DNA of 61,028 nucleotides from an uncultured Spirochaetaceae bacterium (GTDB lineage: Bacteria > Spirochaetota > Spirochaetia > DSM-27196 > PWMO01), in contig CAZZIE010000007.1 in assembly GCA_964654185.1 (NCBI GenBank), positions 1 to 61,028 on the forward strand. Direction: 5' to 3'. The notes below the pieces were generated by a model. That model was not told the DNA's origin and ran no database searches. It was given only the letters and a program-made list of their open reading frames with translations. Positions 5,118 through 27,535 of this stretch are shown piece by piece; the stretch's first letter is position 1; every line of letters starts with the position of its first letter. Made by a program: the position numbers and the translations under genes.

Positions 5118-6206
5118 ATGAGCCGCGACCACATGAGCGAGACACTGCGCCGCGCCGCCGAGATCACCGCCCGACCCGGAGAGATCCGCGCCGCCGCGCG
5201 CCTGGTTGCCGGTGACGGCACGGTCCTGGCGGAGGTCGCCGGTGCGCTGCCTCGCCTCCCGGGCTACCCGGCGAGCCTGCTCCCGGACTCACCGGCCACA
5301 CCGGACGCACCGGACTCACCGGTGGGCATGAACGGGGCCACCCTCTACGTAACGGTGGACCCCTTCGATCTTCCCGCTACGCTTCGCCATGGCGGTGCCC
5401 CGACAAGGGGCGACCAGTCTGCGGCAGACGGCGCCGCCGGACCCGATGCGGCCGCGACGGCGCAGCGTATTGCCGACGCCGGTGTGGCCCGGGTGCGCAT
5501 TGCCATGCCGCCGCTCGCGCTGCTGAGTCGGGGGGCGCACCTTCCAGAGGACGCGGTCGAAGCGGACGCGGCGGACGCCACCCCGCTTGGGGAGGCGCTG
5601 GCCCGCGCCCGAGTCGCCGTGGAGCTGGGGGTATGCGGTCCGGAGGCGCTGATCTTGAACGAGGCTCCGATCGTCGGCGCCCTCCGGGGTGCACCGTTCA
5701 CGCATCTCTTCGTCGTGCAGACCCTCGACGGCCGACGCCTTCGCTCGGATGCGTATTCGGCGGCGGTCATCGCCCTCAGAGACGCCGTACACCGGCGGTA
5801 CGACCGCGTCGTTGGCGCTGATCCATCGCCGGAGGCGGATCCTGATGCGCCCGTCCTGACCGACCTCGTGGCGCGAGACGACTGGGATCGGCTCACCGTG
5901 GCCACGCTTCCCCGGGTGTTCGGGAACGGCGCGGAAACCATCGGCGACATTGGGGTGCGGGAGTTGGCGGACGTGAAGCGCCTCGAGAAGGCCGTGTGGT
6001 GGACCCTGGACGGGGTCGTGGCGGTGAGCGGATATCGCGCCCCGGAGGAGACCTTCGGATCGGCGGCGGCGCGTCTGATTCGCGAAGCTTCACCCCTCGT
6101 CTACCTGCCGGGTAGCACCGGTGATTTCGCTGCTCCCCGCAAGGAAAGTGTTCTCTCTATCCTCGATCGGCGGCGGAAGCCCTCCTCACACACCAACTCG
6201 CCATAA
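5118..6206 (+). CDS. Degenerate RibD-like deaminase/reductase homologue
   Basis: ATLYVTVDPF, AGVARVRIAM and VAVELGVCGPEALILNE...GAPFTHLFVVQTLDGR follow the RibD layout. The HAE and PCxxC zinc ligands are absent. Confidence 0.6.
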   Translation: MSRDHMSETLRRAAEITARPGEIRAAARLVAGDGTVLAEVAGALPRLPGYPASLLPDSPATPDAPDSPVGMNGATLYVTVDPFDLPATLRHGGAPTRGDQSAADGAAGPDAAATAQRIADAGVARVRIAMPPLALLSRGAHLPEDAVEADAADATPLGEALARARVAVELGVCGPEALILNEAPIVGALRGAPFTHLFVVQTLDGRRLRSDAYSAAVIALRDAVHRRYDRVVGADPSPEADPDAPVLTDLVARDDWDRLTVATLPRVFGNGAETIGDIGVRELADVKRLEKAVWWTLDGVVAVSGYRAPEETFGSAAARLIREASPLVYLPGSTGDFAAPRKESVLSILDRRRKPSSHTNSP

Positions 6207-6368
6207 CCTGCTAAGAACCCTGTTGATGAGATTCCGGCAAGTCACGCTGCAAAGGAAGGTTACGCGGCTGTAGACTCGTGAAGGAGGTTTCGGACGGTCT
6301 GCCGCCGCCAAGCCATGCGGCTGTAGCACTTTATGGGATGCGCCATCAACAGGGTTCCGAGTACGTTG
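6204..6368 (+). repeat. ~165-bp TIR element, copy A
   Basis: Left arm TAACCTGCTAAGAACCCTGTTGATG (6204-6228), right arm CATCAACAGGGTTCCGAGTACGTTG (6344-6368), 115-nt core. Confidence 0.9.
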
Positions 6369-6442
6369 CTGGTGTCCAAAATTTATGACTGATTCGGTAA
6401 AATTCGCAGTCAACGGCAAAGTCCACTTGCTATCTTCGACTC

Positions 6443-7807
6443 ATGGGACGTTACCGACACACAGCTCCTCTCACGGCAGTTCTGCTCGCCTTCGCGGCGG
6501 TACCATTTGCAGCCTCATGTGCCACGCAGCCGGCCGGGCGGTCTCTTCCGAACCCCGATGGCACCTTCGACGCCATGCAGGCGGACCGTCGCGTGGGCGA
6601 GATCGCCTACGTCGGGGTGGACCGGCGGATCTACCTCACGGATCGGTACGGCCAACGAACTCTCCCTGTAACCGAAACCCGGGACATTCCGCCGACGGAG
6701 CTTCTCTTCGACATTCCGACGTGGTCGCCCGACGGAGACAGGCTCGCGTTCATGGGCTTCGACTCCTCCGGGGAGGGTGAGAGCCGGAGCACCATGTACG
6801 TGGCCGACTTCGTGCAGGGCAAGCTGCATACCAGCTTCGTCGCCCTGGACAACTCGCCCTTCTACCTTGCCTGGGACCCCTCGGGAGAGCGCATCAGCTT
6901 CCTGAGCTCGGATGAGGAGAGCTCCAGGCTGAGCCTGCAGATCGTGGAACCGGACGGCTCCGGATACCGGGTCCTCACCACGGGGCGTCCCATGTACTTC
7001 AGCTGGTCACCCCGCGGCAGCTACATTGCGGTGCACGCCGGCGGAGCCGGCGTCCGGGAAGATGCGAGAAGCAGGATATCCGTTCTGGACATGGACGCCG
7101 CCGCCGGCCCGGAGGAGCGGAGCATAGAGGCGCGTGCCGGGTACTTCCAAGCACCCTCCTTCTCCCCTGCGGGGCGCCGGTTCGCCGCCGCCGTCATTGA
7201 CGATGAGGGTAATCGCAGTCTGGATGTGTACGCCTCGGATGGTGAACGTCTGGCGACGGTGTCGGCACTCAACAGGTTTGTTGCCTTCGACTGGTCCCCG
7301 ACGGGAGAGCAGATCGCCTTCATTGACGGATTCAACTCACCCTTCGGCGGGGTCCTGGGGCGCTTTCGCCTCATCGATCTGACGGGATCGGCGACGACGG
7401 TCGATCTCAATGTAACCGAGGCGCCGATAACATCGGCCACTGCTTTCTTCTGGTCCCCCGATGGAAGCAAGATCGCCATTCTCGAGACCTTGCCCGGGCC
7501 CGACCAGGAGCAGGTCTCGCGGTTCTATCTGACACTCTCGATTCTGGATACCGAAACCCGACAGGTGCGACGGGTTGGACCGTTCATTCCGACTGCGACG
7601 TTCGCGACGCAAGTCGTGCCCTTCTTCGATCAGTACCAGCGCTCCACGACCCCCTGGGCGCCGGACAGTTCGGCCCTGGTGATCGCGGCCATGTCGCCGG
7701 AGAACCGGCCGGGCATCTATCTGATCGATCTCAGCGAGGAGCGGCCACAGTACAGCAAGGTGGCCGAGGGGCGCATGGCGTTCTGGCGCCCCGCGCCGGA
7801 CGAGTAG
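6443..7807 (+). CDS. TolB-like/PD40 beta-propeller lipoprotein
   Basis: Lipobox FAASC and repeated WSPDG/WSPRG/FSPAG blades. Confidence 0.8.
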   Translation: MGRYRHTAPLTAVLLAFAAVPFAASCATQPAGRSLPNPDGTFDAMQADRRVGEIAYVGVDRRIYLTDRYGQRTLPVTETRDIPPTELLFDIPTWSPDGDRLAFMGFDSSGEGESRSTMYVADFVQGKLHTSFVALDNSPFYLAWDPSGERISFLSSDEESSRLSLQIVEPDGSGYRVLTTGRPMYFSWSPRGSYIAVHAGGAGVREDARSRISVLDMDAAAGPEERSIEARAGYFQAPSFSPAGRRFAAAVIDDEGNRSLDVYASDGERLATVSALNRFVAFDWSPTGEQIAFIDGFNSPFGGVLGRFRLIDLTGSATTVDLNVTEAPITSATAFFWSPDGSKIAILETLPGPDQEQVSRFYLTLSILDTETRQVRRVGPFIPTATFATQVVPFFDQYQRSTTPWAPDSSALVIAAMSPENRPGIYLIDLSEERPQYSKVAEGRMAFWRPAPDE

Positions 7808-7925
7808 GACGGCCGACCCCGGGGCGGTCCGGTAGCGGGCCGGGGGCCGGCCTCGCGCGGGGCCCGTGGCCGCCCGGTTTGCTTTGCACGGGGCGACTTG
7901 ATCTCCGACCCCGCGCCGGGTCGGT

Positions 7926-9158
7926 TCACTCCGGGGCGGCTTCCGCTTTCGAGCCTTCCGTTTCCACGCCTTCCGACTCGTGGTGCGTCACTTTGGGATC
8001 GAGCAGTGGCACCAGGAGCAGGCTGCCCAGCATAAGAGCTCCAAGGACGATGAAGCCGAGGTAGAACACTCCCAGGTCGCCGAGGACGCCCATGCCGGCG
8101 GGAAAGAGACCGGCGCCGACGGTGTTGACCGCCGGGATCATGAGGCTCACCACCAGGTTGCGACTGGTTGCCGTCCCGATCCGGGAGAGCGCCGAGAGCG
8201 CCGCGGGAAAGAAGGCGGCAACCACCGCGGGTTGCAGAAAGACCACCGCCACGAGGGGCCCCCCGTGCAACACACCGAATAGCAGGGTAAGCACGCCGCC
8301 GACGCCCACCACCGTTCCAATAAGGACCCGTTCGCCCAGGCGGTCCCGAAGCACTCCCGACACGAAGACCATGACAATGCCCGATACGCGGGACAGACCG
8401 ACCACGGTGTTCACCGTCGATTGGTCGAAGTTGCGCTCGGATGTGAGATACGTCGGCAGGATGGAGAAGACACCGAGCGCCGCCGATGCGGCCAGGATGA
8501 AGAAGGTCGCCACAGCCCAGAAGCGCCTTTGCCGAAGGAGCTCGGTCACCGTCGAGAAGCGCGGCGGTTCGCCGCGGAAGCGCCCCGCCCTGGATGTCAG
8601 TGAGAATACCACCAGCATTACCAGCACAGCGGCTCCGAGTATCGCGATCACACCGCGCCAGGATGTTACCGGCAGAAGCAGGTTGGTGAGAAAGGGCGCC
8701 GAGACGAAGGCGAGATTCGGGCCCAGGTCGTGGAAGGCGATCGCCTTGCCCCAATCCCGGGGCGAAACCATCTCGGTGAGCGTCGCTATGCCGGAGGGTG
8801 CGTACAACCCGGCTCCGGCGCCGAGGAAGAACACGCTCACCTGGATGAGTCGCAGGTTCGGACTCACTGCGGTGAGCAGAAGAGCCACGCCCGTCACGAC
8901 GGAGGCAACCTGGATGGTGGCGCGGTGATCGATGGCGCGGGCCACGAAGCCCGACAGGAGCATGGTAATGCTGTACCCCACCGCCATGATGAGGAACAGG
9001 CTCCCCGTAACCGCGTGGCCGACCCCCAGATCGGCACCGATCTCAACCAGCAGCGGGCTGAAGACAAGGCGGCCGAGGAAGTTGAGATAGATCGTCCCCG
9101 TCAGCAGGAGTACAGGGGCGGGATTGAATGGACGGAGGGTGCTCGTCGTATCGGTCAT
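7926..9158 (-). CDS. MFS transporter
   Basis: About 12 hydrophobic segments, with an MFS-like GFVARAIDHR loop. Confidence 0.85.
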   Translation of the reverse strand: MTDTTSTLRPFNPAPVLLLTGTIYLNFLGRLVFSPLLVEIGADLGVGHAVTGSLFLIMAVGYSITMLLSGFVARAIDHRATIQVASVVTGVALLLTAVSPNLRLIQVSVFFLGAGAGLYAPSGIATLTEMVSPRDWGKAIAFHDLGPNLAFVSAPFLTNLLLPVTSWRGVIAILGAAVLVMLVVFSLTSRAGRFRGEPPRFSTVTELLRQRRFWAVATFFILAASAALGVFSILPTYLTSERNFDQSTVNTVVGLSRVSGIVMVFVSGVLRDRLGERVLIGTVVGVGGVLTLLFGVLHGGPLVAVVFLQPAVVAAFFPAALSALSRIGTATSRNLVVSLMIPAVNTVGAGLFPAGMGVLGDLGVFYLGFIVLGALMLGSLLLVPLLDPKVTHHESEGVETEGSKAEAAPE

Positions 9159-9195
9159 TTTCGGGTCGCCGCTGCCGGTCCGTTACGGCCGGGGC

Positions 9196-9816
9196 TCACG
9201 GCCGCGGGCCCAGGTCCACGATCTCGTGTATGAAGGCGTAGTTGCTTCCGGCAAGGCGGCCCACCGGCTTCAGGGTCTTATGGTCAATGTGCAAACGCTC
9301 ATTGACAAGATCCTTCCGCACGGAGACGGTGACGACTTCTCCCAGCACCAGGGTGGCGCTGCCGGGACCGTTTCCGACCTGGATGCTGTCGTAGAGGGTG
9401 CACTCCAGGCGAATGGGGCTCTCCGCGAGGGACGGCGGGCGAACCCTCTGCGACGTCTCCGGCGTGAGCCCATACAGATCGAGCTCACTCTTCTCCGGCG
9501 GGTAGTCCCCCGAAGACCCGTGCATGGCAACCTCATTGGGCTCGCTCACCACATTGATGACGAACTCCCCGGTAGCGCGGATGTTCCGCAGAGTGTCCTT
9601 GGCGTTCTCCGGTCGGTCCGGGTGATAACTGAAGGAGACCGAGACGACCGCCGGGCGTGAGGAGACTCCGTTGAAGTAGCTGAAGGGTGCCAGATTGACG
9701 ACGCCCGCATCGTTCACTGAGGTGATCCACGCGATAGGCCTGGGTACAACACAACCAATCATGAGCTTATAGACCTCACGAGGCGTGAGATCATCGGGAG
9801 TCAGGTGTGTGAACAT
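9196..9816 (-). CDS. Flavin reductase family (FMN-binding) protein
   Basis: VVPRPIAWITS...NLAPFSYF, KDTLRNIRATGEFVINVV and GRLAGSNY. Confidence 0.9.
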   Translation of the reverse strand: MFTHLTPDDLTPREVYKLMIGCVVPRPIAWITSVNDAGVVNLAPFSYFNGVSSRPAVVSVSFSYHPDRPENAKDTLRNIRATGEFVINVVSEPNEVAMHGSSGDYPPEKSELDLYGLTPETSQRVRPPSLAESPIRLECTLYDSIQVGNGPGSATLVLGEVVTVSVRKDLVNERLHIDHKTLKPVGRLAGSNYAFIHEIVDLGPRP

Positions 9817-9827
9817 GTACCTGCAGC

Positions 9828-11027
9828 CTACTCCCCGTCGTCGCTTTCGGCAATAAGTCGCGTGAGGGTTTCGGTGATCCGGTCGACGAGGGCGCCGAAG
9901 TCGGGGGCATCGCTCTTCTCAATCCGGAACCCAATGGCGCCGGCGTGGCCGCCGCCGTTCTCAATGTTCATCTCATCGAGGAGTAAGCGAAGGTCCAGGG
10001 TCTTGAAGGCGCGGCTTCGCCGCGACCTGAGCTGAATGAGGTTGGAAACTCCGGGGGGGTCGAAGAAACACACCAGGCTGACGTAGCCGCTCGCCTCGGC
10101 GAGCTCGTCCGCGACGCCCCGGGCGACCGAGACGAGAGTGTCGACGTCGAATCGTTCCGTCGCCTCGGCACTCGCCTCCTCATCCAGCGCCGCAATGCCG
10201 ACGGGGCCGCGGATCTCCCGGTGCTTCATGATGAAGGCGTGGCACTTCGACTCCTTAACGGACAGCTTCTTCAGCTCGGAGTAGACCTCTTCCATGTTGG
10301 TGAAGTTGGTGTGCTTGGTCGTCTTTGCCGTAAGGAGGCGGTCGAACATGTTGCTGAACATGCGGTAGAACCGCGCCTCCTTCTTGCTCTTGATGAAGCT
10401 CCCCATCTGGGTATCGCCGACAATGCCGGTGATGATCGCAAGGACCACGTTGCGAGAAAAGACTTCCTCCACGGCGAACTCCTGAAGGAGCTCATCCCGA
10501 CCGCTGAGCTTGCAGGCCAGAAGGCCGACGAGCTCACAGGCGGAGGAGGCTTCCGCCACGAGAGCGTATTCCGGCTTCGCGTTGTAGCGGCTGTCCGATG
10601 CAACGTGATGATCGAACTCTATGTGGAGAACGTCGTCCCGGCCGACGAGCGCCTCTACCTCCGGGGAGATGTATACGAGATCCGGCTTGGCGCTGTCGCA
10701 GAAGATGATCGTGTCGATCCGGTCCTCTTCATCGCGGCACCCGGTATTCACGTTGATCGAGTTGTACCGGGCAATGTCGATGAGGTACTCGAAGTGGTCC
10801 GGAAGGTCCGGGATGGTGCAGAGGGTGACCTTCTTGTCGAGCTTGCTCAGGAGAAGGGCAACCGCGACCATGCAGGAGACGCAATCCTCGTCGGGACTCT
10901 TGTGACCGACGATCACAAAGTTCTCGCGTCGGGCAAAGGCGGTTATGATATTGTCCACGACGCGATTCTTCTGAGCGATCGTGGGGATGTCCCGCTTCCG
11001 CATTGTGCTGGCATCCGGACTGTGCAT
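9828..11027 (-). CDS. DHH/DHHA1 family phosphoesterase
   Basis: GHKSPDED, FCDS, FDHH, GIVGDT and GGGHAGAIG motifs. GGAGG RBS upstream of the ATG at 11027. Confidence 0.85.
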   Translation of the reverse strand: MHSPDASTMRKRDIPTIAQKNRVVDNIITAFARRENFVIVGHKSPDEDCVSCMVAVALLLSKLDKKVTLCTIPDLPDHFEYLIDIARYNSINVNTGCRDEEDRIDTIIFCDSAKPDLVYISPEVEALVGRDDVLHIEFDHHVASDSRYNAKPEYALVAEASSACELVGLLACKLSGRDELLQEFAVEEVFSRNVVLAIITGIVGDTQMGSFIKSKKEARFYRMFSNMFDRLLTAKTTKHTNFTNMEEVYSELKKLSVKESKCHAFIMKHREIRGPVGIAALDEEASAEATERFDVDTLVSVARGVADELAEASGYVSLVCFFDPPGVSNLIQLRSRRSRAFKTLDLRLLLDEMNIENGGGHAGAIGFRIEKSDAPDFGALVDRITETLTRLIAESDDGE

Positions 11028-11045
11028 GAACGTCCCTCCGTATGA

Positions 11046-11104
11046 GCTCAGTAGCCCCCGTGGGCTCAACAGCCCCTGTGGGCTCAACAGCCCCAGTGGG
11101 CTCA
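11046..11104. repeat. 18-bp tandem repeat (about 3.3 copies, GCTCAACAGCCCCNGTGG)
   Basis: Units at 11046, 11064 and 11082 plus a partial unit. They form GGGCT-CAAC-AGCCC hairpins. Confidence 0.85.
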
Positions 11105-12091
11105 GCCGCCGTCTTCCCCCGTCGGGGCGACTTCGGAGCGATTCCGACCGCGCTCCTTAGCAATGTACAGCGCCTGGTCGGCCTTTTCCCGCAGTTCTTC
11201 GGCATCCGCGGCGTGCATGGGATAACAGGCGATGCCCTGACTCGTCGTGACCTTGGTGATGGTCCCGCCGAACTGCTCGAGGAAGTCGAGTTGTGCGACC
11301 TCTTCCCGAAGCTTCCCGCAGATCTCGCTTGCGACGTCCGGCGTCGTGTTCGGCAGAATGAAGGTGAACTCGTCTCCGCCGTACCGCGCCAGGATGTCCG
11401 TCTCGCGAAAGTTGCGCTTGATCGCCGGGGCGACGGCGGCAATGAGCTGATCTCCGGTCTCGTGACCGTACTCGTTGTTGATTCCGGTGAAACGGTCCAG
11501 ATCCATCATGACCAGACACATCGGTTCTCCCGTCGAGACGGCGTGGGCGAACTGGTCGGTGAGGCTCTGGTCCAGGAAGCGCCGATTGAAGAGCCCGGTC
11601 AGATCGTCGGTGAAGGCGCGCTTCCGGGACTCCTCACCCCACTGGACGAGATCCGAGAGGAAGGAGCTCGTGTTCTCCAGTCGTCCCGCAATGACCCCGA
11701 GCATCTTATGCATGATCTTGATGGCAACTGTCGGCCTGCTGCTCAGGAGTGTCGAGAAGTCCTTCTCGTGGAGGCGGTACACCACGGCGTCGTCTGCGGC
11801 ACGGCATGTCGCCGAGCGCGGGGCGTGCTCGAATATGGACATCTCCCCGAAGAAGTCTCCGGGGCCGAACTCAGCGACCGTCAGGTCCTCTCCGTCCTCG
11901 GTGCTCACGCTGGTCGCCACCTTCCCATCACTCACAATGAAGAGAGAGTCGCCGGGATCTCCCTGCTGGAACAGCGCCTGTCCGTCGGTGAGATGCTCTT
12001 CCTTCAGGACCTGAGAGATCGCTTCCAGCTCGCTGGAATTGAGGTCGGCGAAGATCTCGACGCCTTCGAGAAAGGAGAGCTCACTAACCAT
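11102..12091 (-). CDS. cNMP-binding domain + GGDEF protein
   Basis: CAP_ED motif FGPGDFFGEMSIFEHAPRSAT, then DLDRFTGINNEYGHETGD, an RETD I-site, RYGGDEF and AKERGRNR. Confidence 0.9.
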   Translation of the reverse strand: MVSELSFLEGVEIFADLNSSELEAISQVLKEEHLTDGQALFQQGDPGDSLFIVSDGKVATSVSTEDGEDLTVAEFGPGDFFGEMSIFEHAPRSATCRAADDAVVYRLHEKDFSTLLSSRPTVAIKIMHKMLGVIAGRLENTSSFLSDLVQWGEESRKRAFTDDLTGLFNRRFLDQSLTDQFAHAVSTGEPMCLVMMDLDRFTGINNEYGHETGDQLIAAVAPAIKRNFRETDILARYGGDEFTFILPNTTPDVASEICGKLREEVAQLDFLEQFGGTITKVTTSQGIACYPMHAADAEELREKADQALYIAKERGRNRSEVAPTGEDGG

Positions 12092-13121
12092 TGTCGCCTC
12101 CGGACTGCGTCGACTCCTGCCGAACCTGCCCGCTTCCTTCCGCGCAGACGCGGTCGCCGCCGTCGTTGCGGGCGTGCATGAGCCGGTCGTAGGCGAGCTG
12201 GAGCAGGTCGTCGCCGTTGCTCCCGTCGGTCGGCGCGACCGCAATTCCAATGCTCGGGGTAAGCGTCACCGCCTCGCCGGTCATACCGGAAATGTCGATG
12301 GCGTGGACGCGATCCCGCAGCTCCTCGGCGATCTTCAACGCGCCCTCGCGGGCGATCCCCGGCAGCAGTGCAGCGAACTCATTGCCGCGGTAGCGGATTG
12401 CGGAGCCGTCCACATCGACCCGTTCCTGAAAGCTCCGAGCCAGGATCTTGATCGTCTTGTCGCCCACCTCGTGACCGTAGGTATCGTTTATGTCCTTGAA
12501 TCGGTCCGGCTTGAGCATGAGGACGCTCGATGCATCGGCGTCGGTGGGTGGAAAGCTCTTCATGGAGTCCTTGAGAAACGCGGTGTTGTAGAGGCCCGTG
12601 AGTTTGTCGGAGTAAACCTGACGACGCAACTCGCGAACCCAGGAGCTGTTCTCGCTGAGGAGCTTGTTCGTTGAGCGGATCCGCCCCGCCAGGAAGGCGA
12701 TCAGCTTCTGGAGAACCCGCGCAAAGACCACCGGCTCGCGGTCGAGCACGTCTTCGAACCGATCCGGCGGGGCCGGGAAGACCAGCACCCTTGTCTCCTT
12801 GCTTGCTACCGCGGTGGCGCTGCGGCCGGATCCGCGCAGTACGTCCAGCTCTCCGAAGGACTCTCCGGCAATGAAGCGTGCCACATCCCGGGAACGGGTC
12901 TCATCTTCCTTCTGGCGGATGAGAACCTCCCCCCGCTCAATGACGTAGAAGTTGCTTGCGCGGTCGTTCTCCCGAAAGACCGGCTGCTCTTCCTGAAAGG
13001 TGAGGTAGATGCTGTGTCGCTCCACCGCCGAGCGCTCTTCCGCGCTCAATTCGGCGAAGATTCCGCTTCCGGCCAGGAGATCGGAAGTTGTGCTGCGGTT
13101 CATTGTGGCTGCCACACTCAT
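12084..13121 (-). CDS. cNMP-binding domain + degenerate GGDEF (RGNEF) protein
   Basis: FIAGESFGELDVLRGSGRSATA, then KPDRFKDINDTYGHEVGD and RYRGNEF. Confidence 0.85.
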   Translation of the reverse strand: MSVAATMNRSTTSDLLAGSGIFAELSAEERSAVERHSIYLTFQEEQPVFRENDRASNFYVIERGEVLIRQKEDETRSRDVARFIAGESFGELDVLRGSGRSATAVASKETRVLVFPAPPDRFEDVLDREPVVFARVLQKLIAFLAGRIRSTNKLLSENSSWVRELRRQVYSDKLTGLYNTAFLKDSMKSFPPTDADASSVLMLKPDRFKDINDTYGHEVGDKTIKILARSFQERVDVDGSAIRYRGNEFAALLPGIAREGALKIAEELRDRVHAIDISGMTGEAVTLTPSIGIAVAPTDGSNGDDLLQLAYDRLMHARNDGGDRVCAEGSGQVRQESTQSGGDNG

Positions 13122-15527: not shown

Positions 15528-15541
15528 CCGGCGCGTCCCCG

Positions 15542-16916: not shown

Positions 16917-16920
16917 GGGT

Positions 16921-17040: not shown

Positions 17041-17046
17041 CGCGAG

Positions 17047-18764: not shown

Positions 18765-19922
18765 ATGGCAGCAGAACGAGATAGACAGACACGCGGCTCT
18801 TTGGCACGCGGCTCCTTTTCGAGCGGCTCCTTCGGACGCACATTCTTCATTGTCGTACTCCTGGCGGTGACCGCCCTCGTTGTGGTGATTGTCCGGCGCT
18901 TCCTCATGGCTGCCCTCCTGGCGGCGATTACCGCGGCCCTCTTCTACCCGTTCTACCGCTTCTTCGAACGGCGCATTCCAATTCGGCGACTTGCCGCCCT
19001 GGTCGCGCTCATACTTGTCATCGTGGTATTCGTCGTGCCCCTGGCGGCCTTCGCATACCTGGCGGTCGACACCGTCGCCGGCTTCATGCAGAACCTGCAG
19101 GAGGGGTCGGCCCCGGTCCGCAACGAGGTCCGACAGGTCGTGGAAGCGGTCATGGAGTGGCCGATCTTCAGGCGCTTCGACATCGACCCGGGAGATATTG
19201 TTCAGAACCTCCTTGCAGGCCTGAACGTCGTGGATGCACAGTTGCTCACCAGTGTGCGCTCGGTGGTTCAGTCCGTCGGGGCGACGGCGCTGAACATCTT
19301 CATCTATGTGTACAGCCTCTACTTCTTCTTTCGGGACGGACCGACGCTTCTGAGGCGGATCTTCGAGCGCATTCCCATGCGCCGGCAGGATAAGGACGTG
19401 CTCTTGGAGAAGTTCGTCACCGTCACCCGCGCGACCATCAAGGGCACCATCATCATCGGCATCTTCCAGGGCGCCATCGGCGGACTTGTCATGTTCGTTC
19501 TCGGACTGCCCGGCGCGGTGGTGTGGGGGGTGCTCCTCTTCTTCCTGGCGGCCATCCCCAACTTCGGCGCAATTCTCGTCTGGCTGCCGGCGTCCATCTA
19601 CCTCTTCCTCACCGGCGCCATTGCCCGGGGCATCCTCATGGTCGCCCTCGCCGGCGGACTCCTGGCGGCGGTGGACTACCTGCTCCGCCCGCGCCTCATT
19701 GAAGAGGACATCCGGGTGCATCAGCTCCTTGTCCTCTTCAGCGTGCTCGGCGGCCTCATTGTCTTCGGCGTATTCGGCCTCATCCTCGGGCCCATCATCA
19801 TGGCCGTCTTCGTCAAGATGTGGGAGATCTACGGCGACCTCTTCCACCATGAGATCGAAGCTGCCGAGCATCCCGCAGTCTCATCTCAGGAAGAGCATGA
19901 ACCTCCGGAAGATCATGAATAG
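18765..19922 (+). CDS. AI-2E family transporter
   Basis: Multi-TM protein with DYLLRPRLI and FGVFGLILGPII motifs. Confidence 0.9.
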   Translation: MAAERDRQTRGSLARGSFSSGSFGRTFFIVVLLAVTALVVVIVRRFLMAALLAAITAALFYPFYRFFERRIPIRRLAALVALILVIVVFVVPLAAFAYLAVDTVAGFMQNLQEGSAPVRNEVRQVVEAVMEWPIFRRFDIDPGDIVQNLLAGLNVVDAQLLTSVRSVVQSVGATALNIFIYVYSLYFFFRDGPTLLRRIFERIPMRRQDKDVLLEKFVTVTRATIKGTIIIGIFQGAIGGLVMFVLGLPGAVVWGVLLFFLAAIPNFGAILVWLPASIYLFLTGAIARGILMVALAGGLLAAVDYLLRPRLIEEDIRVHQLLVLFSVLGGLIVFGVFGLILGPIIMAVFVKMWEIYGDLFHHEIEAAEHPAVSSQEEHEPPEDHE

Positions 19923-20556
19923 GGACGATGCCCCCAGGGACCGCCCGGAAGAACGAATCGAGGCGCTGCTGCGCGCCTTCGCGGTGAAGCGGACAACCCG
20001 CGCGGGCTGGCACCGGGTCGGTGTCGGGGACCCGGAGTCGGTGGGCGACCACTCCTGGGGGACGGCGCTCCTTGCGCTGGAGTTCGCCGGCCTTGCCGGT
20101 GTGCCCGCGCACCGCGCCGCCGCCATGGCGGTGGTCCACGACCTCCCCGAGGCGATCACCGGCGACGTGCCGTACCGTCCGGAGGGGCGGGCGGGCCCGG
20201 ACGAGCAGCGGGCGCGCCTGGATGTCCCGGCGGGTGGGGCGACGCCGGAGCACGCGGTGCGCGGCGGGAAGGCGGAGCGTGAGGCCGCCGCCATGGCGGA
20301 GCTCACTGCGGAAGGCGACGAGGCGCGAACGCTCTGGAATGAGTACGAGGCAGGGGCTACTCCGACGGCGCAGTTCGTCCGGGACATGAACCTCATCGAC
20401 ATGTGTCTGCAGGCGGTGATCTACGCCGAGGCGGAGGCTTCTCCCGGCCACGATTCGCTCCGGGAGTTCCTGGATTCCTCCGCGCCCCGCCTGCAGACCA
20501 AAGTGGGGCGCAGACTATTTGCCGCGCTGGATCGGCGCTTCTTGGACAGCCGGTAA
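19915..20556 (+). CDS. HD-domain hydrolase (YfbR/HDDC2-like)
   Basis: RAGW...ESVGDHSW, VVHDLPEAITGD, LWNEYE and FVRDMN. Confidence 0.85.
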   Translation: MNRDDAPRDRPEERIEALLRAFAVKRTTRAGWHRVGVGDPESVGDHSWGTALLALEFAGLAGVPAHRAAAMAVVHDLPEAITGDVPYRPEGRAGPDEQRARLDVPAGGATPEHAVRGGKAEREAAAMAELTAEGDEARTLWNEYEAGATPTAQFVRDMNLIDMCLQAVIYAEAEASPGHDSLREFLDSSAPRLQTKVGRRLFAALDRRFLDSR

Positions 20557-20605
20557 TCCACCTGTAAAATGGGTGTCCAACCACACCGCGGGAGGAGCAG
20601 TCTGC

Positions 20606-21370
20606 ATGCCCTATCTACATCTGCTGGGAACCGGCGCAGCCATGAGCGATCCACACCGTACTGTCACCATGCTCGCCCTCGAGGATGAGCATGACCTCTA
20701 CCTCATCGACTGCGGTGGCGACACCATTCAGCGCCTGCTCCTGCTCGGAACGCCGCTGGAGAAGCTTCGCGGCGTGGTCATCACGCATGAGCATCCCGAC
20801 CACGTGGCCGGGTTCCCCCTCCTCATGGAGAAGCTCTGGCTTGCCGGACGGCGCGATCCGGTGGATGTGTACGGCATTGAGCCGGCGCTGGGAACGGCAG
20901 ATCAACTCCTGGCTACCTTCGATACCTCCGGATGGGAGGGCATGCCGGAGATCCGCTGGCATGAGGTCGCCCATGAGCCCGGCGCGGCCGTTCTGTCGGA
21001 GGGCCCCTGGACCATGACGGCGGCGCCCGGCATTCATTCGGTTCCCGTCGTCGGGCTGCGAGTAGGGTACCAGGCCGGAGAGAACGAGATGCCGCGCGTC
21101 CTGGCGTACTCCTGCGACACCGAGTACGCCGACGACATTGTCGAACTTGCCTCGGATGCGGACGTGCTGGTGCATGAGGCGACCGGCCCCATGGAGGGGC
21201 ACAGTAGCGCGCGGGATGCCGCGGCGGTTGCCTCCCGCGCGACCTGCGGCCGCCTGCTTCTGGTGCACCTCCCGCCGGCGGCATCACTTACCGACGAGAT
21301 GATCACTCAGGCCCGCGGTATCTTTGCCAACCTGGACCGAGGCCGCGAAGGGGGAACCTATCCATGGTAG
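20606..21370 (+). CDS. MBL-fold metallo-hydrolase (RNase Z-like)
   Basis: LLGTG, LIDCG, ITHEHPDHVAG, YSCDT, LVHEAT and LVHL. Confidence 0.85.
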   Translation: MPYLHLLGTGAAMSDPHRTVTMLALEDEHDLYLIDCGGDTIQRLLLLGTPLEKLRGVVITHEHPDHVAGFPLLMEKLWLAGRRDPVDVYGIEPALGTADQLLATFDTSGWEGMPEIRWHEVAHEPGAAVLSEGPWTMTAAPGIHSVPVVGLRVGYQAGENEMPRVLAYSCDTEYADDIVELASDADVLVHEATGPMEGHSSARDAAAVASRATCGRLLLVHLPPAASLTDEMITQARGIFANLDRGREGGTYPW

Positions 21371-21404
21371 TCCGGGAGCCGGTGGTTGAAGGAGAGGAAC
21401 GAGC

Positions 21405-23129
21405 ATGAAACGAATAATCGACGCATTGACCCGACGCTACGATGAACGGGACCTCCTGGTGCGCCGGCGCGCACGTCTCTTCGTGGTGGTGGTGTTCATC
21501 ATTGCGCTGCTGACCATCCTCAACTTCGTGAGTGAGGTGGCTCTCGGGACAACGGACCTCGGCTCCGTTCTCGGCAATATCGCTCTGATCGTCGTCTACA
21601 TTGTCACGGTTGTGATCATGGCGAGTGGCCGCTACCAGCTCGCAACGACGATCTTCCTGCTTTTCACCATTGCCGGCGTTGCCCTGACCGTTCTCACACT
21701 CCCCGAGGTGAATGCAACGACGAGCTACCGGATGGCCGCGGGGCTGCTCCTCCCGCTTGTTGCGGCGGCGGTCGTGGCCTTGCGATATTACCAGGTCATC
21801 CTTTCGGGGGCTCTCGCCGTGGGCCTTCACCTCTACTTCCATTTCGCAAGGATCGTGCCCGCCGTGCAGGGGCCGGCCGCCGCGGACGTCCTGGGCTCGA
21901 CCCTTGTGTATCTGATCGTTGCTACGGTTCTCGTGGTGGCGGCGGTGTGGATGACCCAGCGGCTCATGCAAACTGCGGAAGAGCAAACCGACGCGAGCCG
22001 CACACGCCTCGAGGAGATGCAGACTCTGGTGGCGACTTCAGAGGAGGGCTTCCGGGTCGGCGCTTCAGTCCAGCAGGAAATCCAGGCGGTTCGCTCCAGC
22101 ATTGAGCAGGTCGAGCGCACCATGCGCTCCCTCCGGGATCGCATGCAGGACCTTGCCACACGGCATGACGGTATCCGCAACGCCAACCAAGCAGTCGCCG
22201 AGGCGACCGCGACGGTGAAGCGCGTCGTCATGGATCAGAACAGCGCCACCGAGGAGAGCTCCGCCTCCATTGCGGAGATGGCCGCATCGATTCGCAGCAT
22301 CGACGAGGTCGCGCGCTCCAAGAAGAGCCTTGCCGACGGTCTCGCCCAGACCGCCCAGGAAGGGCAGACCCAGATGGACGAGTCCGTCGAGGCGATTGCG
22401 AGTCTCGCCGACAAGGTTTCCGAGATCTCCGACGTCGTAGGGGTGATCGAGAGCATCAGCGAGCAGACCAGCCTCTTGTCCATGAATGCCGCCATTGAGG
22501 CGGCCCACGCCGGCGAGCACGGCCGCGGCTTCGCCGTGGTGGCGGAGGAGATTCGAAAGCTCAGCGAGAACACCAGCGAGAACACCCACCGCATTGCCGA
22601 TACCATCAGCAGCATTGTCGAGCAGATCCGCCACACCCGGGAAACCAACAGCGAGGCCGGTGGCTACTTCCAGCGTATCACCAAAGAGATCTTCGACGTC
22701 CGGGACGCCATTGACGAGATGATCAGCGGTCTCGGGGAGCTTTCCACCGGTACCGGAGAGATGGACAAGGCGGTTCGCAGCCTCGTCGACGGGAGCCGCA
22801 CCGTCGACTCAACAATTGACGATGTCGACGGCAAGATCAAGGACAGCAACCAGGACATTGAGCAGCTCACCACCTACTCCACGCAACTCCTCGAAGAGGT
22901 CGACCAGGTCGTCTCGGAGGTCGAGCGCATTGAGCAGTCGGCCAACACCCTGGAGCAGATCGGCCGGCGCAATGTGGAGCAGCTCAAAGGCTTCGAGGAG
23001 AAGCTGAACAGCATAACCGGCGGCCGCGCCGGCGCGGACGACCGTGTCGGCGGCCCGGACGGCCGCACCACGGCGCCTGCCGGCACTCAGGAAGGTGAAT
23101 CGGAGGAGACGGGGATCCGCCTGGCGTAG
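21405..23129 (+). CDS. Methyl-accepting chemotaxis protein
   Basis: Multi-TM N-terminus, and [36 protein letters not shown]. Confidence 0.95.
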
Positions 23130-23207
23130 CCGCGCGGTTAAGCCAGGCGGCGGGCTGGTGCGGCGGGGCACCGCAGCTGCAGGCCGGGGCGGTCCGCCCG
23201 GCGGGTC

Positions 23208-24098
23208 TCAACCCCGAAGGCGCAGCAGGGCATCCCGCAGACGGTCGGGGAGAGGTGCAACCAGCCGCGCCGCCAGGCGTGCATCGGGACCGACAAGGTA
23301 GCGTGTGCGGGGTCGACGCGCCGTGAGCGCCCGGGCAACAACGCGCGCTACCGCGTCCGGCCGGATGCCCCGGTTCGGGGCCCGCTCGGCGTGGACGATC
23401 GCCTTCGTGATGCGGTCACCGTAGAGGGTCGTCGCCTCCACCGGCATCTGCTGCTGCATTGCGCGACCCGCCTCCAACGCCTTGTCCCAGAGGGGCGTAC
23501 GCACCGTTCCCGGCTCTACCGCCGCAACCCGGATTCCCTGCCGCTCCACCTCCATTCGCAGTGTGTCCGTCAGGCTCTCGACGGCAAACTTGCTCGCCGT
23601 GTAGGGCCCGCTCGGGCTGAAGGCAATCCGCCCGCCGATCGAGCTGACGTTGACCAGCCGCGCCCGGCGGTACCGCCCGGGCACGTCGCCACCGGCGCCG
23701 CTCCGTACCGTCGCCACATACTGCCGTAGCAGCGGCAGACAGAGCTGAGACATGGCCACCAGGGAGAACACGTTGACCTCGAACTGCCGGCGCAGCTCCT
23801 CGATTGGAACAAACTCGATCGGCGCCGCCAGGGCAATCCCGGCGTTGTTGACCACCCCGTAGAGCCCCGCCTCCCCGGCAAGCTCAGCAATGTGCTCCAC
23901 CGCTGCGCGCCGCGCGGCCTCATCGGTGACATCAAACACAAGGGGATGAATGCGCCGCGGCTCAGTCGCCGCCATCTCCGCCGCATCTTCCTCTCGCCGC
24001 ACCCCTGCAAAAACCGTGAACCCGCGGTTTGCCAGCTCATGCACCGTCGCCAGCCCAATGCCCTTCGACGCCCCCGTCACCAATACGTGCCTGGTCAT
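23208..24098 (-). CDS. SDR family oxidoreductase
   Basis: VTGASKGIG, VNNAGI, NVSSIGG and YTASK. Confidence 0.92.
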   Translation of the reverse strand: MTRHVLVTGASKGIGLATVHELANRGFTVFAGVRREEDAAEMAATEPRRIHPLVFDVTDEAARRAAVEHIAELAGEAGLYGVVNNAGIALAAPIEFVPIEELRRQFEVNVFSLVAMSQLCLPLLRQYVATVRSGAGGDVPGRYRRARLVNVSSIGGRIAFSPSGPYTASKFAVESLTDTLRMEVERQGIRVAAVEPGTVRTPLWDKALEAGRAMQQQMPVEATTLYGDRITKAIVHAERAPNRGIRPDAVARVVARALTARRPRTRYLVGPDARLAARLVAPLPDRLRDALLRLRG

Positions 24099-24140
24099 CT
24101 GCGCTTCCTCGCCGCCCGCCCCGGATCGGCGGCCGGACAC

Positions 24141-24169
24141 AAAAAAACCGGGCACCGCAGTGCCCGGTT
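24141..24169 (-). terminator. Rho-independent terminator
   Basis: On the minus strand AACCGGGCAC-TGCG-GTGCCCGG followed by a T7 tract, downstream of 24201-25472. Confidence 0.85.
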
Positions 24170-24200
24170 CAAGTATACGTCTTCTACAACGCTGGAGGGT

Positions 24201-25472
24201 CTACCAGAGGAGTCCGACGTTCAGACCCAGGCTGAGGCCGGGCCCCCGGTCTTCCTCCAGCGGGAAGTACACCGCTGCAGGGACATCGATCTTGAAGGGC
24301 CCAAGGTTGAATGCAGTTCCGAAGGTGATCCGCGGATTGAGAAAGGCGGGCTGGCTGCTGCTCACCTGACTCAGGGTGATGGAACCGCCGTTGGCGGAGA
24401 GATAGTCGCTTTCACCGAGGTAGCCGGTGACTTCCGCGCTTCCCTCCCCTTCGATAGCAATGTCCGATGAGCCGCCGAGGGAGAGGTCCACGCCTGCACC
24501 AAGGCTGAAGTCGAAGAGCCAGAGCAGGCGCAGTGCCGTAGCAACCTCAATGGGGATGGTCAGCGCGCGGTTTTCGACGCTGAGGCGCGCCTCCGGATTC
24601 AGCAAAACAGTTCCCAAGTCGGTTCCCGAGGGGTAATTCGTCGGATCTTGGTTTTCGAGGGCGATGTCCAGTTGCTCCAGATCGCCACCCTCGGTCAAGC
24701 CGAGTTGCTCTTTCGTAAGGTTGGCTTCGAAGCTTCCCTCTTCAAGGATATCCCCGACGGGAATTCCGATGCCAACACCGCTGCTGTGCAGAACGGCGCC
24801 GGCGCCGACGCTGATTCCCCGAAAGCGGATGGGACCGTTGGGCCAGAGATTGCCGACCAGGAGGTAGTTCAGGAAGCCGCCGACCGATCTGGACTGGATG
24901 TCGGCGGTAACGCCCTCTTCAATGGGAACGGACACGTCAATGCTGCCGAACTTGCCCGATAGGTAGAGCCCGTCAATGAGGAAGTCCATGCTGAGGCCCA
25001 GGGAAGCAGCCCAGGTCTGCCAGGCGCCACCAATGGCGGCGTTGTTGCCGAGCGCCTCATAGAGAGCTGCCGTAGGATCGGTGGCGTCCGCGGAGATTTC
25101 AACTGCCGGCAGCTGAACGCCGATGTTGGTCCCCGCAGCCAGGTAGAAGCTCTGGTAGTCGGTGTATGACCGCAGGGTGGCGACATTCGTGGCAAAGATC
25201 CCCGCATTGGCAAAGGCCCCTGCGAGATTGCTCAGGTCGGGCAGTTGGCCCAGTGCTTCGTCGGCGGAGGAAACCGCGCCGTCTACCTGGGTTGCCAGCT
25301 TGGTGTTGACGGTGTTTTCCCAATCGTTGATATCAGTCTGAGTGATTCCGCCCTGATCTGCGAGGGAATCATCGATCTCGATGCTCGGGTACGTGCCGAC
25401 CGTCACCTGTGCCGTGGCAACGGAAGCTCCAAGAAGCGCCAAAACTATTGCTATTGTCACTATTCGTTTCAC
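24201..25472 (-). CDS. Secreted, probable outer-membrane beta-barrel protein (spirochaete Lsa36-like family)
   Basis: GTG start with a GAGGAG RBS, signal peptide, AGAFANAG motif, alternating beta-strands and a C-terminal Trp. The family name is from recall only. Confidence 0.55.
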   Translation of the reverse strand: MKRIVTIAIVLALLGASVATAQVTVGTYPSIEIDDSLADQGGITQTDINDWENTVNTKLATQVDGAVSSADEALGQLPDLSNLAGAFANAGIFATNVATLRSYTDYQSFYLAAGTNIGVQLPAVEISADATDPTAALYEALGNNAAIGGAWQTWAASLGLSMDFLIDGLYLSGKFGSIDVSVPIEEGVTADIQSRSVGGFLNYLLVGNLWPNGPIRFRGISVGAGAVLHSSGVGIGIPVGDILEEGSFEANLTKEQLGLTEGGDLEQLDIALENQDPTNYPSGTDLGTVLLNPEARLSVENRALTIPIEVATALRLLWLFDFSLGAGVDLSLGGSSDIAIEGEGSAEVTGYLGESDYLSANGGSITLSQVSSSQPAFLNPRITFGTAFNLGPFKIDVPAAVYFPLEEDRGPGLSLGLNVGLLW

Positions 25473-25627
25473 AACAAAACTCCTCGTGCCCCGGGTCGTT
25501 CGCCTGGAGCTGTTCTCCTGTGTTTCAAACATAGCCCTGTAGCGAGCATATATCAAAGTGACGGGATGCGGAAGGAGAAGAACCTGAAACGGGTCTGGGA
25601 ATTCCGCGAAGCGTGTCGCAAAAGGGC

Positions 25628-25666
25628 GGGCGCCGACCGGTCCGGGCGCCGACCGGTCCGGGCGCC
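25628..25666. repeat. 16-bp tandem repeat GGGCGCCGACCGGTCC (about 2.4 copies)
   Basis: Read directly from the sequence, immediately left of element B. Confidence 0.75.
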
Positions 25667-25676
25667 GGGCGAACTC

Positions 25677-25842
25677 TAACGTACTCAGAACCGTGTTGAT
25701 GGCCCGAGAGCCAGCTCCTTTCGGGACCGAGAGATAAGCAGCCGGTCGCAGGTAAAGGGACGCCTGACATGGCGGGGTCCTCGCAACACCTTTCGACCGC
25801 GGCGGATACGCCGGAGCCATCAACACGGTTCTGAGTAGGTTG
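25677..25842 (-). repeat. ~165-bp TIR element, copy B
   Basis: Arms TAACGTACTCAGAACCGTGTTGATG (25677-25701) and CATCAACACGGTTCTGAGTAGGTTG (25818-25842), 116-nt core, flanked by the direct repeat GGGCGAACTC. Confidence 0.9.
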
Positions 25843-25868
25843 GGCGAACTCCTCCTTCCGCCGACACA

Positions 25869-26288
25869 TTACCGCGCGGGGCGGATCTCGTAGTCGTAGG
25901 TGATGGTGGCGCCGGTGCGGAGCATCTCGCCGACGGAGCAGTACTTGTTCACCGCGAGGTCGAGGGCGCGGGCGGCCTTCGCCTCGTCGACGGGGCCTAT
26001 GAGCGTGAAGTGGAGGTGGATCGCGGTGAAGGGAGCGGGAGACGTGTCGGGGCGAGTGCCGTTGACATCGATCTCAATGTCTTCCAATCCGGCCCGCTGC
26101 TTGCGCAGGATTTCCACGAGATCCATGGAGGCGCAGGTCGCAAGGGCGGCAAGGAGGGTTTCCATGGGGCGCAGGCCGGCGCCTTCGCCGCCGATGGCCG
26201 GGGCGCCGTCGATGTGGATTTCGGCGCCGTCTGTGTTGCGGGCGACGAAGTGGACGCGGTCGTTGGCGCGGTGGAGTGATACGTTCAT
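25869..26288 (-). CDS. OsmC/YhfA family protein
   Basis: RPMETLLAALATCASMD...AVNKYCSV. Confidence 0.9.
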   Translation of the reverse strand: MNVSLHRANDRVHFVARNTDGAEIHIDGAPAIGGEGAGLRPMETLLAALATCASMDLVEILRKQRAGLEDIEIDVNGTRPDTSPAPFTAIHLHFTLIGPVDEAKAARALDLAVNKYCSVGEMLRTGATITYDYEIRPAR

Positions 26289-26306
26289 GGGTCTTTCATA
26301 GTAAAA

Positions 26307-26323
26307 TCGACTTACTCAGTCAA
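26307..26323. promoter_or_regulatory. Rrf2-family (IscR/CymR-like) operator candidate
   Basis: TCGACT-N5-AGTCAA near-palindrome between the divergent osmC-like gene and cysM. It matches the YYGACT-N5-AGTCRR core of IscR type 1 sites. Confidence 0.5.
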
Positions 26324-26371
26324 CTAAGTGAAGACTTGCTGGGGCGATGTGAATTGGCTACCCTGACACTC

Positions 26372-27373
26372 ATGAACATCAAGACCATTGAAGAGTGTGT
26401 CGGCAACACGCCGCTGGTGAAGCTGCAGCGACTCTATCAGGGCGCCAACACGGTGCTCTGCAAGCTGGAAGGGGACAACCCCGCCGGGTCGGTGAAGGAT
26501 CGGCCCGCCCTCAGCATGATTCGCCGCGCTGAAGAGGCGGGGCGAATCAAGCCCGGGGACACGCTGATTGAGGCGACGAGCGGCAACACGGGCATTGCGC
26601 TGGCGATGGTTGCGGCGGCGCGAGGCTACAAGATGGTCGTGATCATGCCCGAGCACATGAGCGAGGAGCGCCGCGCGGTCATGCGCGCCTACGGCGCCGA
26701 GCTGATCCTCACCTCCAAAGAGGGGAGCATGGAGGAGGCCATTGATACGGCGCGGCGGATGGAGTCGGAGGGCCGCGGCGTGATCCTGGACCAGTTCTCC
26801 AACCCGGACAACCCGCGCGCCCACTACGAGACGACGGGGCCCGAGGTGTGGCGGGACACGGACGGTCGGATCACGCACTTTGTGGCATCGACCGGGACGA
26901 CGGGCACGCTGATGGGAACCTCCCAGTACTTGAAGGAGCAGAACCCGGACATCCGCATTGTCGGGGTTACTCCGGACGCCGAAGGCGGCATTCCGGGGAT
27001 CCGCAAGTGGCCGAAGGAGTACGAGCCGCGGATCTTCGATGAGTCGCGTCTGGACGAGCGGCGGCAGGTCGGCCGGGAAGAGGCCGTCGCCATGATGCGC
27101 GCCCTCGCCCGAGAAGAGGGCATCTTCGGGGGCATTTCCTCCGGGGGGAACGTTGCCGTGGCGTTGCGGCTGGCCCGGGAGCTCGAGGTGGAAGGCCCTG
27201 CGCCGGCGGCCCGCCACGGGACGGGCGCCAGTGGGGCGGGTGCCGGCAGGACGGGTGCCGGCAGGACGGGTGCCGGCGGGGCAGGATCCCCCCGGACGGG
27301 CTCCGAGGGGGCGGTGATCGTGACGGTGATCTGTGATCGGGGAGACCGCTACCTCTCAACGGGCCTCTTTTAA
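26372..27373 (+). CDS. cysM: Cysteine synthase B (O-acetylserine sulfhydrylase)
   Basis: KLEGDNPAGSVKDR, EATSGNTG, GTTGT, PGIRKW, EEGIFGGISSG and CDRGDRYLSTG. Confidence 0.93.
   Translation: MNIKTIEECVGNTPLVKLQRLYQGANTVLCKLEGDNPAGSVKDRPALSMIRRAEEAGRIKPGDTLIEATSGNTGIALAMVAAARGYKMVVIMPEHMSEERRAVMRAYGAELILTSKEGSMEEAIDTARRMESEGRGVILDQFSNPDNPRAHYETTGPEVWRDTDGRITHFVASTGTTGTLMGTSQYLKEQNPDIRIVGVTPDAEGGIPGIRKWPKEYEPRIFDESRLDERRQVGREEAVAMMRALAREEGIFGGISSGGNVAVALRLARELEVEGPAPAARHGTGASGAGAGRTGAGRTGAGGAGSPRTGSEGAVIVTVICDRGDRYLSTGLF
27238..27277. repeat. In-frame 15-bp tandem repeat within cysM
   Basis: GGGTGCCGGCAGGAC about 2.7 times, encoding GAGRT repeats. Confidence 0.85.
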
Positions 27374-27535
27374 CCTACCCACAACCCTGTTGATGCCGTA
27401 GCGGGTAACTCACGGTGGCGCAGAGGCTTCGCCGTTTCTGCGGGCTGGATGCATGCGTATCGTGTTCGCAAGGCGCCAACGTCTGCTGATGCAAGGCGTT
27501 GGGCCGCTCCCATCAACAGGGTTCTGAGTACTTAA
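27371..27535 (+). repeat. ~165-bp TIR element, copy C
   Basis: Arms TAACCTACCCACAACCCTGTTGATG (27371-27395) and CATCAACAGGGTTCTGAGTACTTAA (27511-27535), 115-nt core. Confidence 0.9.

Follow-up and report, generated by a model that had tools for sequence, protein, structure and literature searches.

The 61,028-bp stretch of DNA analysed here (the window; contig CAZZIE010000007.1 of an uncultured spirochaete, positions 1 to 61,028) carries three full copies of a dispersed 165-bp element. [quoted passage not shown] They are identified as MITEs because 9-bp target duplications flank several copies and because a related species lacks one copy, copy B, at the syntenic site. The elements are shorter than about 300 bp, dispersed and non-coding, they are bounded by 25-bp terminal inverted repeats (TIRs) shared with an IS, and they occupy sites that are filled in one genome and empty in another. 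As a MITE family they are new, and their partner IS had not been annotated before; the kind of element is already known. The features in the window are as follows.

1..55, plus strand: right end of the full-length IS (autonomous partner); 1-48 are the last 16 transposase codons, 49-51 the stop codon TAG and 31-55 the TIR AATCAACAGGGTTGTGGGTAGGTTA
6204..6368, no strand: MITE copy A, 165 bp, subfamily I (the largest); nearest relative in the genome 76% identical
25668..25676, no strand: left 9-bp target duplication of copy B, GGCGAACTC
25677..25842, no strand: MITE copy B, 166 bp, subfamily III (small; also C23 and C117)
25843..25851, no strand: right 9-bp target duplication of copy B, GGCGAACTC
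27371..27535, no strand: MITE copy C, 165 bp, between convergent genes

An earlier reading of the window from its letters (the sequence-only reading) had described three full copies of a repeat with a fixed length, conserved ends and a divergent core, and expected many more in the genome if their density here is typical. Copies A, B and C were found exactly at the positions it gave. The 20-nt arm motif matched seven times in the window with at most 3 mismatches, and not once in 100 dinucleotide-preserving shuffles. The search for arm pairs was then extended to the whole assembly, a metagenome-assembled genome (MAG) of 4.85 Mb in 368 contigs with 63% G+C, to which all genome-wide results refer. 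It contains 64 complete elements and about five that are cut at contig ends, spread over at least 55 contigs. Among the 63 two-armed copies the arm-to-arm spacing was 135 in 58, 134 in two, 136 in two and 133 in one, which gives the exact length of 165 bp in 58 of the 63 copies located by their arms. A profile HMM built on the core alone found the two-armed copies again and added one complete copy (C1:92155-92319) and three cut at contig ends, and a search with a profile of the full element added two further truncated copies.

All 63 copies, when oriented, aligned over 168 columns nearly without gaps. The pairwise identity of the cores had a median of 45% (5th to 95th percentile, 32-75%), and outside a few conserved positions the core is G+C-rich and nearly saturated. 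The cores are homologous, fall into subfamilies and have common landmarks, and are not unrelated sequences. An ordinary MITE, in the terms of the sequence-only reading, would have ends that match an IS and cores that are highly identical; here the ends match an IS, but the cores are not at high identity. Copy C is nearly an orphan, with a best relative in the genome of 55%. Copy B, which lies 26 nt downstream of the stop codon of an OsmC-like gene (25869-26288, minus strand), has a closest relative of just 73.5% identity despite its perfect duplication. This would be in keeping with cut-and-paste lineages that have lost their donor copies. Immediately upstream of its left duplication a short tandem repeat of GGGCGCCGACCGGTCC, about 2.5 units, was noted at 25625-25667.

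Target duplications and the partner insertion sequence

The target duplications were counted with the element boundaries set at (T/G)AAC...GTT(A/C) and the nine flanking bases on each side compared. Perfect 9-bp direct repeats flanked 8 copies, and 8 of 9 bases matched in 2 more. Altogether about 14 of the 63 copies stood above a control with mismatched flanks; the others look random, including copy A with 2/9 matches. Integration would accordingly proceed through a 9-bp staggered cut that leaves a 9-bp duplication. The motif CGCCGACTC was considered as a target preference and dropped; it was present in just 6 of 126 flanks, and 4 of these came from two duplications.

Filled and empty sites were compared with same-genus genomes. 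A contig of the congener G002 is syntenic with 18823-27795 of the window. At the site of copy B the intergenic region of G002 measures 81 bp, compared with 295 bp in the window, and the element is absent; copy B is a lineage-specific insertion. For 12 other copies, a chimeric query of the joined flanks was searched against the same-genus genomes, and the element was missing at 7 further loci. A single clean copy of the target could not be reconstructed at these empty loci of the congeners, since the DNA between the genes has diverged too far and is in part masked with N. Copy C has an orthologue in G002, with a core that is 76.5% identical without any indel, arms that are 84% and 92% identical and flanking coding DNA at about 87-90%; some insertions therefore predate the split of the species. 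Several copies show full or almost full identity to one another, and their 9-bp duplications are intact. The sequence-only reading had proposed an old non-autonomous mobile unit; the mobile unit stands, and the near-identical copies with intact duplications show that it is not merely old. In another genome, G003 (L065, contig C171), the locus orthologous to the MITE-filled site C5:54139-54304 reads GATAG joined to CGTAGGCTA. This looks like the extreme bases of the two element ends and may have been left behind by a deletion or an excision.

The partner IS was recognised at the edge of the window. Positions 1-55 had been taken for a truncated fourth copy of the repeat; they are the right end of a full-length IS that has the same 25-bp TIR, and the contig breaks inside this IS. 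The arm variant AATCAACAGGGTTGTGGGTAGGTTA was found at about 34 contig ends, each with one of two interiors. The first reads on the opposite strand ATG CCG ACA CCA ACC TAC TGC..., the start of a transposase (MPTPTYCPNPACP). The second is an open frame that ends in IPYYAIRDLAQANQQGCG with its stop codon within the TIR. The TIR at these contig ends encloses the N- and the C-terminus of a transposase. The assembly is broken by a high-copy IS that shares its TIR with the small repeats and whose interior is unassembled. At least 17 copies of the IS are present in the genome. The statement that the window holds no cognate transposase is correct for the gene body, but the cognate IS reaches into the window with its final 55 bp. 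The MITEs and the IS together explain many contig breaks and inflated ends of open reading frames (ORFs) in MAGs of this group.

Intact relatives of the transposase are ORFs of about 390 amino acids, many of them on metagenome contigs of about 1.3-1.5 kb. Full-length relatives occur in this genome (a paralogue on contig C53), in a congener (L002) and on many metagenome contigs. A complete IS relative of 1.34 kb with the TIR TAACGTATCCCGAAGCTTGTTGAT lies in a metagenome contig of 174 kb (L075). The paralogue at C53:17831-19021 is intact and diverged (58% identical over the C-terminus), and its TIRs, ATC(C/A)(A/T)(C/G)AACCTTGTGGGTTTG, are related yet different. Two sub-lineages of the IS family therefore reside together in the genome.

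The transposase gave nothing significant in a Pfam search, and a tblastn search against 72,556 plasmids gave no match. With NCBIfam, 32 aligned homologues showed weak N-terminal matches to ISL3 in 32/32 (best 8e-9) and to IS1 in 31/32 (best 2.3e-8). These matches span a zinc ribbon and a helix-turn-helix (HTH), which both families and the partner transposase have in common at the N-terminus, and the IS1 match reaches about residue 153 and includes D124. The scores are far below both cut-offs. The IS1 model NF033558 gave 19-29 bits against a cut-off of 100 and covered profile positions 12-130 of 199 only, and the ISL3 model NF033550 gave 19-34 bits against a cut-off of 180 over the N-terminal ~110 residues only. 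The C-terminal ~240 residues were matched by no Pfam or NCBIfam model. A duplication of 9 bp is typical of IS1; for ISL3 elements one of 8 bp is expected, and the duplication here is 9 bp.

An AlphaFold model of the transposase was confident, with a pLDDT of 89. When it was compared with the PDB by Foldseek, the top match was the ISCth4 transposase (E = 3e-4, probability 1.0, with a low TM-score of about 0.26), followed by retroviral integrases, Metnase, EndoV and RNase H. The matches indicate an RNase-H fold and a transposase of the DDE type, but the TM-scores are low. D124, D214 and E271 are invariant among the aligned homologues and are candidates for the catalytic triad. The protein is widespread and is annotated as 'hypothetical' or 'transposase-like', without a Pfam domain. 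Its IS family could be defined by means of the TIRs, the 9-bp duplication and the RNase-H fold. Whether it would found an undescribed family, distantly related to IS1 and ISL3, we regard as doubtful when this is taken jointly with the geometric reading and the stop-site targeting described below.

We propose that the 165-bp elements would be moved in trans by the DDE-type transposase of an IS of about 1.34-1.4 kb with the same TIR. Several observations speak against it. About 49 of the 63 copies have no target duplication. Copy C9 shows 2/9 matches though it is identical (100%) to C17 and C176, which have 9/9 each, and C16 is without a duplication though it is 98.8% identical to C175, which bears one. 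When an exchange of flanks between copies was considered as the cause of the absent duplications, no reciprocal pairs were found. Since the IS interior is absent from the assembly, the elements are linked to the transposase by the identity of the TIRs only, and the mobilisation in trans is predicted. With these points included, we still consider it highly probable that the elements are MITEs and that this transposase mobilises them.

The sequence-only reading had also mentioned a recombination substrate. According to this explanation the elements would be attC-like integron sites or other sites of a site-specific recombinase and not transposons. The imperfect inverted ends and the variable centre do look superficially like attC, and copies B and C are only 1.5 kb apart. 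However, the copies occur one by one on at least 55 contigs and form no arrays, although no search for an integron integrase was made, and they have direct duplications of 9 bp, which are typical of DDE transposition. The same ends bound an IS that encodes a protein with a predicted RNase-H fold, and they are conserved in sequence at interspersed positions, not in structure. We consider this explanation extremely improbable.

Conserved ends, landmarks and spacing

In the 25-bp TIR the positions A3, T6, C8, A13, A14 and the TGTTGA at 18-23 are invariant. Among the 122 distinct arms compared, TGTTGA (or TCAACA) was invariant in almost all. The variable positions change independently in the left and the right arm, and the invariant ones are interspersed between them. 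This pattern fits a TIR that would be recognised by a protein rather than one kept by pairing. An IHF-consensus reading of the TIR WATCAANNNNTTR was tried and is not claimed; it fits just with a 5-nt spacer.

A structured RNA had been another option of the sequence-only reading. The elements would then be a family of non-coding RNA genes in which the arms form a long closing stem and the fold of the core is kept by covariation. The arms can indeed make a stem of about 25 bp, and in copies B and C117 they are perfectly complementary despite several departures from the consensus. This is not a general rule. When the variable positions 5, 7, 9-12, 15, 17 and 24-26 were compared in 61 distinct copies, the agreement of the left and right arms was that expected with shuffled partners. 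RNAalifold on all copies and both strands returned the arm stem only, and a scan of all column pairs found no core helix with at least 75% canonical pairs across the alignment. The minimum free energies of the cores were no lower than those of dinucleotide shuffles (mean z-scores of -0.12 forward and -0.64 reverse). On the strand transcribed from the upstream gene (29 tandem contexts), G.U and C.A were equally frequent (32 vs 32), and the core orientation relative to transcription was unbiased (15 vs 14). The comparison with Rfam gave no match for the whole window at the gathering thresholds, nor for 25600-27620 at E <= 1. All these tests were negative, and a structured RNA is a very unlikely explanation of the repeats.

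At the level of the DNA, the core contains the landmarks A36/37, T57/58, A78, A107/108 and T128/129, with 1.3-1.9 bits each at the same ungapped coordinates. In each half, AA stands at +19/20 and TT at +39/40 when positions are counted from TGTTGA towards the centre. This layout recurs in both halves of related MITEs from other genera and, by inspection, at the left ends of the IS of this genome and of the L075 IS. The notion that the repeat is selected for its geometry more than for its sequence is thus supported for the DNA, where the length and the A/T landmarks stay in register at 45% identity. Two related patterns were examined and given up. A simple rod model, in which position i pairs with 166-i and shifts are allowed, gave the AA/TT landmark pairs only. 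An internal direct repeat at an offset of 71 is real but weak (0.42 vs ~0.29); it is due to the two quasi-palindromic AA-N19-TT modules and is not a tandem duplication. A continuation of the inverted repeat into the flanks was likewise not general, and copy C alone showed it with 8/10.

We therefore describe each MITE by a model in which two end modules of about 60 bp would flank a poorly conserved centre of about 45-50 bp. Each end module would consist of the 25-bp TIR and the subterminal AA and TT and would act as a bipartite binding module, and the spacing of the modules would be set by synapsis on DNA of about the persistence length. On such short and stiff DNA, synapsis and cutting would depend on contacts with the TIR, on the subterminal landmarks and on their exact spacing. 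Only properly spaced elements would still be synapsed and cut, and the mobile lineages would therefore gain substitutions and almost no indels. Conserved ends, a fixed length and a divergent core could arise in this way without any RNA function. The length and the register of the landmarks point to such a constraint from the geometry of the transpososome.

The A/T occupancy of the core had a period of about 10.0 bp that was equalled in 0 of 5000 column permutations (per-sequence z = 12), and with 17 representatives below 60% identity to each other p was 0.0016. The data are consistent with a helical phasing of the landmarks and do not prove it. Two findings are at odds with the geometric model. 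A peak at 7.1 bp is as strong as that at ~10 bp and is not separable from it, both resulting from the landmark spacings of 21 and 71 nt. In addition, the related families of other genomes each keep within a narrow range of lengths (153-154, 156-158 and 164-166 bp), and the steps between these classes do not correspond to whole helical turns. That the 165-bp MITE is the minimal substrate of the transpososome, with a length and phased A/T landmarks dictated by the looping of DNA below the persistence length, is a tentative proposal that we make together with the stop-site targeting and the new IS family. The family numbers 64 copies at 45% identity without indels and works like a natural mutational scan, in which the fixed positions and spacings probably mark the needs of the transposase or of a host bending factor.

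Position at gene ends

The gene contexts were determined for 56 copies. Of these, 23 lie between convergent genes, 29 are in tandem contexts at the 3' end of the upstream gene, 3 are between divergent genes and 1 is intragenic; genome-wide, 17.6% of gene pairs are convergent. Where a gene reads into a MITE end, its stop codon coincides with nucleotides 1-3 of the element (TAA) in 22 of 75 cases, and any other offset occurs at most 4 times. For the ends of the IS the stop was at nucleotides 1-3 in 10 of 17 cases, and the L075 IS begins with the TAA that ends an upstream radical-SAM gene. In the window, the upstream ORF 4995-6206 has the TAA of copy A (6204-6206) for its stop codon, and a gene for a PLP enzyme (26276-27373) has that of copy C (27371-27373). 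The convergent ORF 27532-28167 (minus strand) has its stop codon within the last 4 nt of copy C.

The empty sites of C17 and C85, which have intact duplications, were reconstructed. In both, the original stop codon (TAA and TGA, respectively) follows immediately after the 9-bp target, and for C1 the same was found by hand. On these reconstructions the three insertions exchanged the stop codon without changing the protein. Since the TIR starts with TAA, an insertion targeting the last three codons of a gene would replace the stop and leave the protein unchanged. The surviving insertions lie at the 3' ends of genes. Related MITEs of other genera (L039-L058; G010, G004, G013, G007) often begin with TAA, TAG or TGA, and the TIR bases after this terminal triplet are conserved. 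This suggests that the triplet may be retained to serve as the stop codon of a gene that runs into the element.

It is possible, and no more than a tentative part of the same joint proposal with the geometry and the new IS family, that the IS and the MITEs actively target stop sites, with the 9-bp cut falling on the last three codons and the TAA of the element taking over. Some points count against this. The gene contexts and stop-codon offsets come from a crude gene caller based on GC3. By inspection, duplication-bearing copies away from gene ends have no T(A/G)A beside the target, and a T(A/G)A at this place was dropped as a general rule. The stop-codon spike could reflect either a choice of target or the survival of harmless insertions. 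If true, stop-site targeting would be a built-in 'harmless docking' strategy. The sharp coincidence offers a clear example in which target choice could be told apart from survivorship across transposon landscapes.

The position of the elements also bears on the alternative that they have been domesticated and serve the host at the 3' ends of genes, where selection in place would keep their ends and length. They could act as terminators or insulators between convergent genes, as stabilisers of mRNA 3' ends through a hairpin of the 25-bp arms, or as binding sites of nucleoid proteins. The excess of copies between convergent genes, the small number between divergent ones and the adjoining stop codons agree with this. 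So does copy C, which was kept in another species without an indel and with arms at 84-92% while several other intergenic regions compared between the two genomes did not align, and further apparent orthologous copies with the same flanks are present in G004/G010 and G007/G010. Against it stand the random orientation of the cores, the equal numbers of G.U and C.A and the cores that are no stabler than their shuffles. Moreover, the core of copy C has diverged by 23.5%, near a rough estimate for the third codon positions of the flanking genes, so that the constraint in place is weak at best. The congeners hold 0-1 copies, so the elements are dispensable. We therefore regard domestication as unlikely and the mobilisation as MITEs by the co-resident IS as the preferred explanation.

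Distribution, known elements and neighbouring features

Elements with these TIRs were found in 10 of 61 relatives, all of them in the same family as this genome or in one other family of the same order. In this survey the genome studied here had 60 copies, two others had 14-15 each and the rest 0-3. Among 400 genomes sampled from the whole phylum, single matches at chance level were all that appeared. One exact match to the arm pair of this genome was seen at 6931-7065 of contig JAFLUW010000088.1 (L060), which belongs to a MAG labelled Prevotellaceae; it could be due to chance, mis-binning or transfer.

That Spirochaetes carry many MITEs was known before (PMC11602168). Among the known elements, the Correia (NEMIS) elements of Neisseria are similar in that they are about 100-160 bp long, have TIRs of about 25 bp and occur in many dispersed, gene-adjacent copies of discrete length classes. 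Correia copies have a TA duplication and act at the RNA level as substrates of RNase III. Their length classes are 155 and 107 bp, the longer with an internal IHF site (PMC2229807). They are much more alike in sequence and have no established partner transposase, whereas the spirochaete MITEs have a 9-bp duplication, a partner IS in the genome, cores at 45% identity and no signature at the RNA level.

The RUP elements of Streptococcus pneumoniae are small and tied to the transposase of a co-resident IS, IS630-Spn1, by the similarity of the TIRs. Like the spirochaete MITEs, they have stop codons in their reading frames and are intergenic (PMC2229807). RUP is, however, 107 bp long, highly conserved and linked to the IS630 family, and the spirochaete partner lacks any Pfam domain and resembles the IS1 and ISL3 models just weakly, at the N-terminus.

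ERIC and the RU elements resemble the spirochaete MITEs in size, in their imperfect palindromy and in their intergenic place near gene ends. The evolution of ERIC is reported to respect an RNA hairpin. In the spirochaete MITEs, in contrast, the covariation and stability tests were negative, and a cognate IS and target duplications are present. ERIC as well as RU-1 (127 bp) and RU-2 (168 bp) have been described as imperfect palindromes in intergenic regions near gene ends (PMC2759123, PMC2229807).

A likeness in geometry is offered by the internal eliminated sequences (IESs) of Paramecium and their transposase PiggyMac, where short TIR-bounded DNA below the persistence length is synapsed at its ends by a transposase and the length appears to be limited by geometry. 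The sizes of IESs have a periodicity of 10 bp that was explained by synapsis of the transposase on short DNA (PMC3408717). The IES system is eukaryotic and domesticated, and its periodicity lies in the size distribution. The spirochaete MITEs differ in that a single length dominates in each family, and the steps between the three length classes seen across genera do not amount to whole turns.

Further features of the window were noted. Beside the IS end, a 92-aa ORF with DUF1508 (130-408, minus strand) is located next to a 255-aa ORF (413-1180, minus strand) that carries a BrnT ribonuclease-toxin domain at its C-terminus (PF04365, E = 7e-27). The latter has a long N-terminal extension, which is unusual for a BrnT toxin. 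The 3' part of the PLP-enzyme gene upstream of copy C is repetitive (27200-27295, units like GGTGCCGGCAGGACGG) and has several indels compared with the G002 orthologue, to which the remaining gene is about 87% identical. Finally, about 855 bp at 23278-24133 are not matched in the syntenic contig of G002, where the corresponding interval is about 20 bp long; an insertion or a lost gene are both possible.

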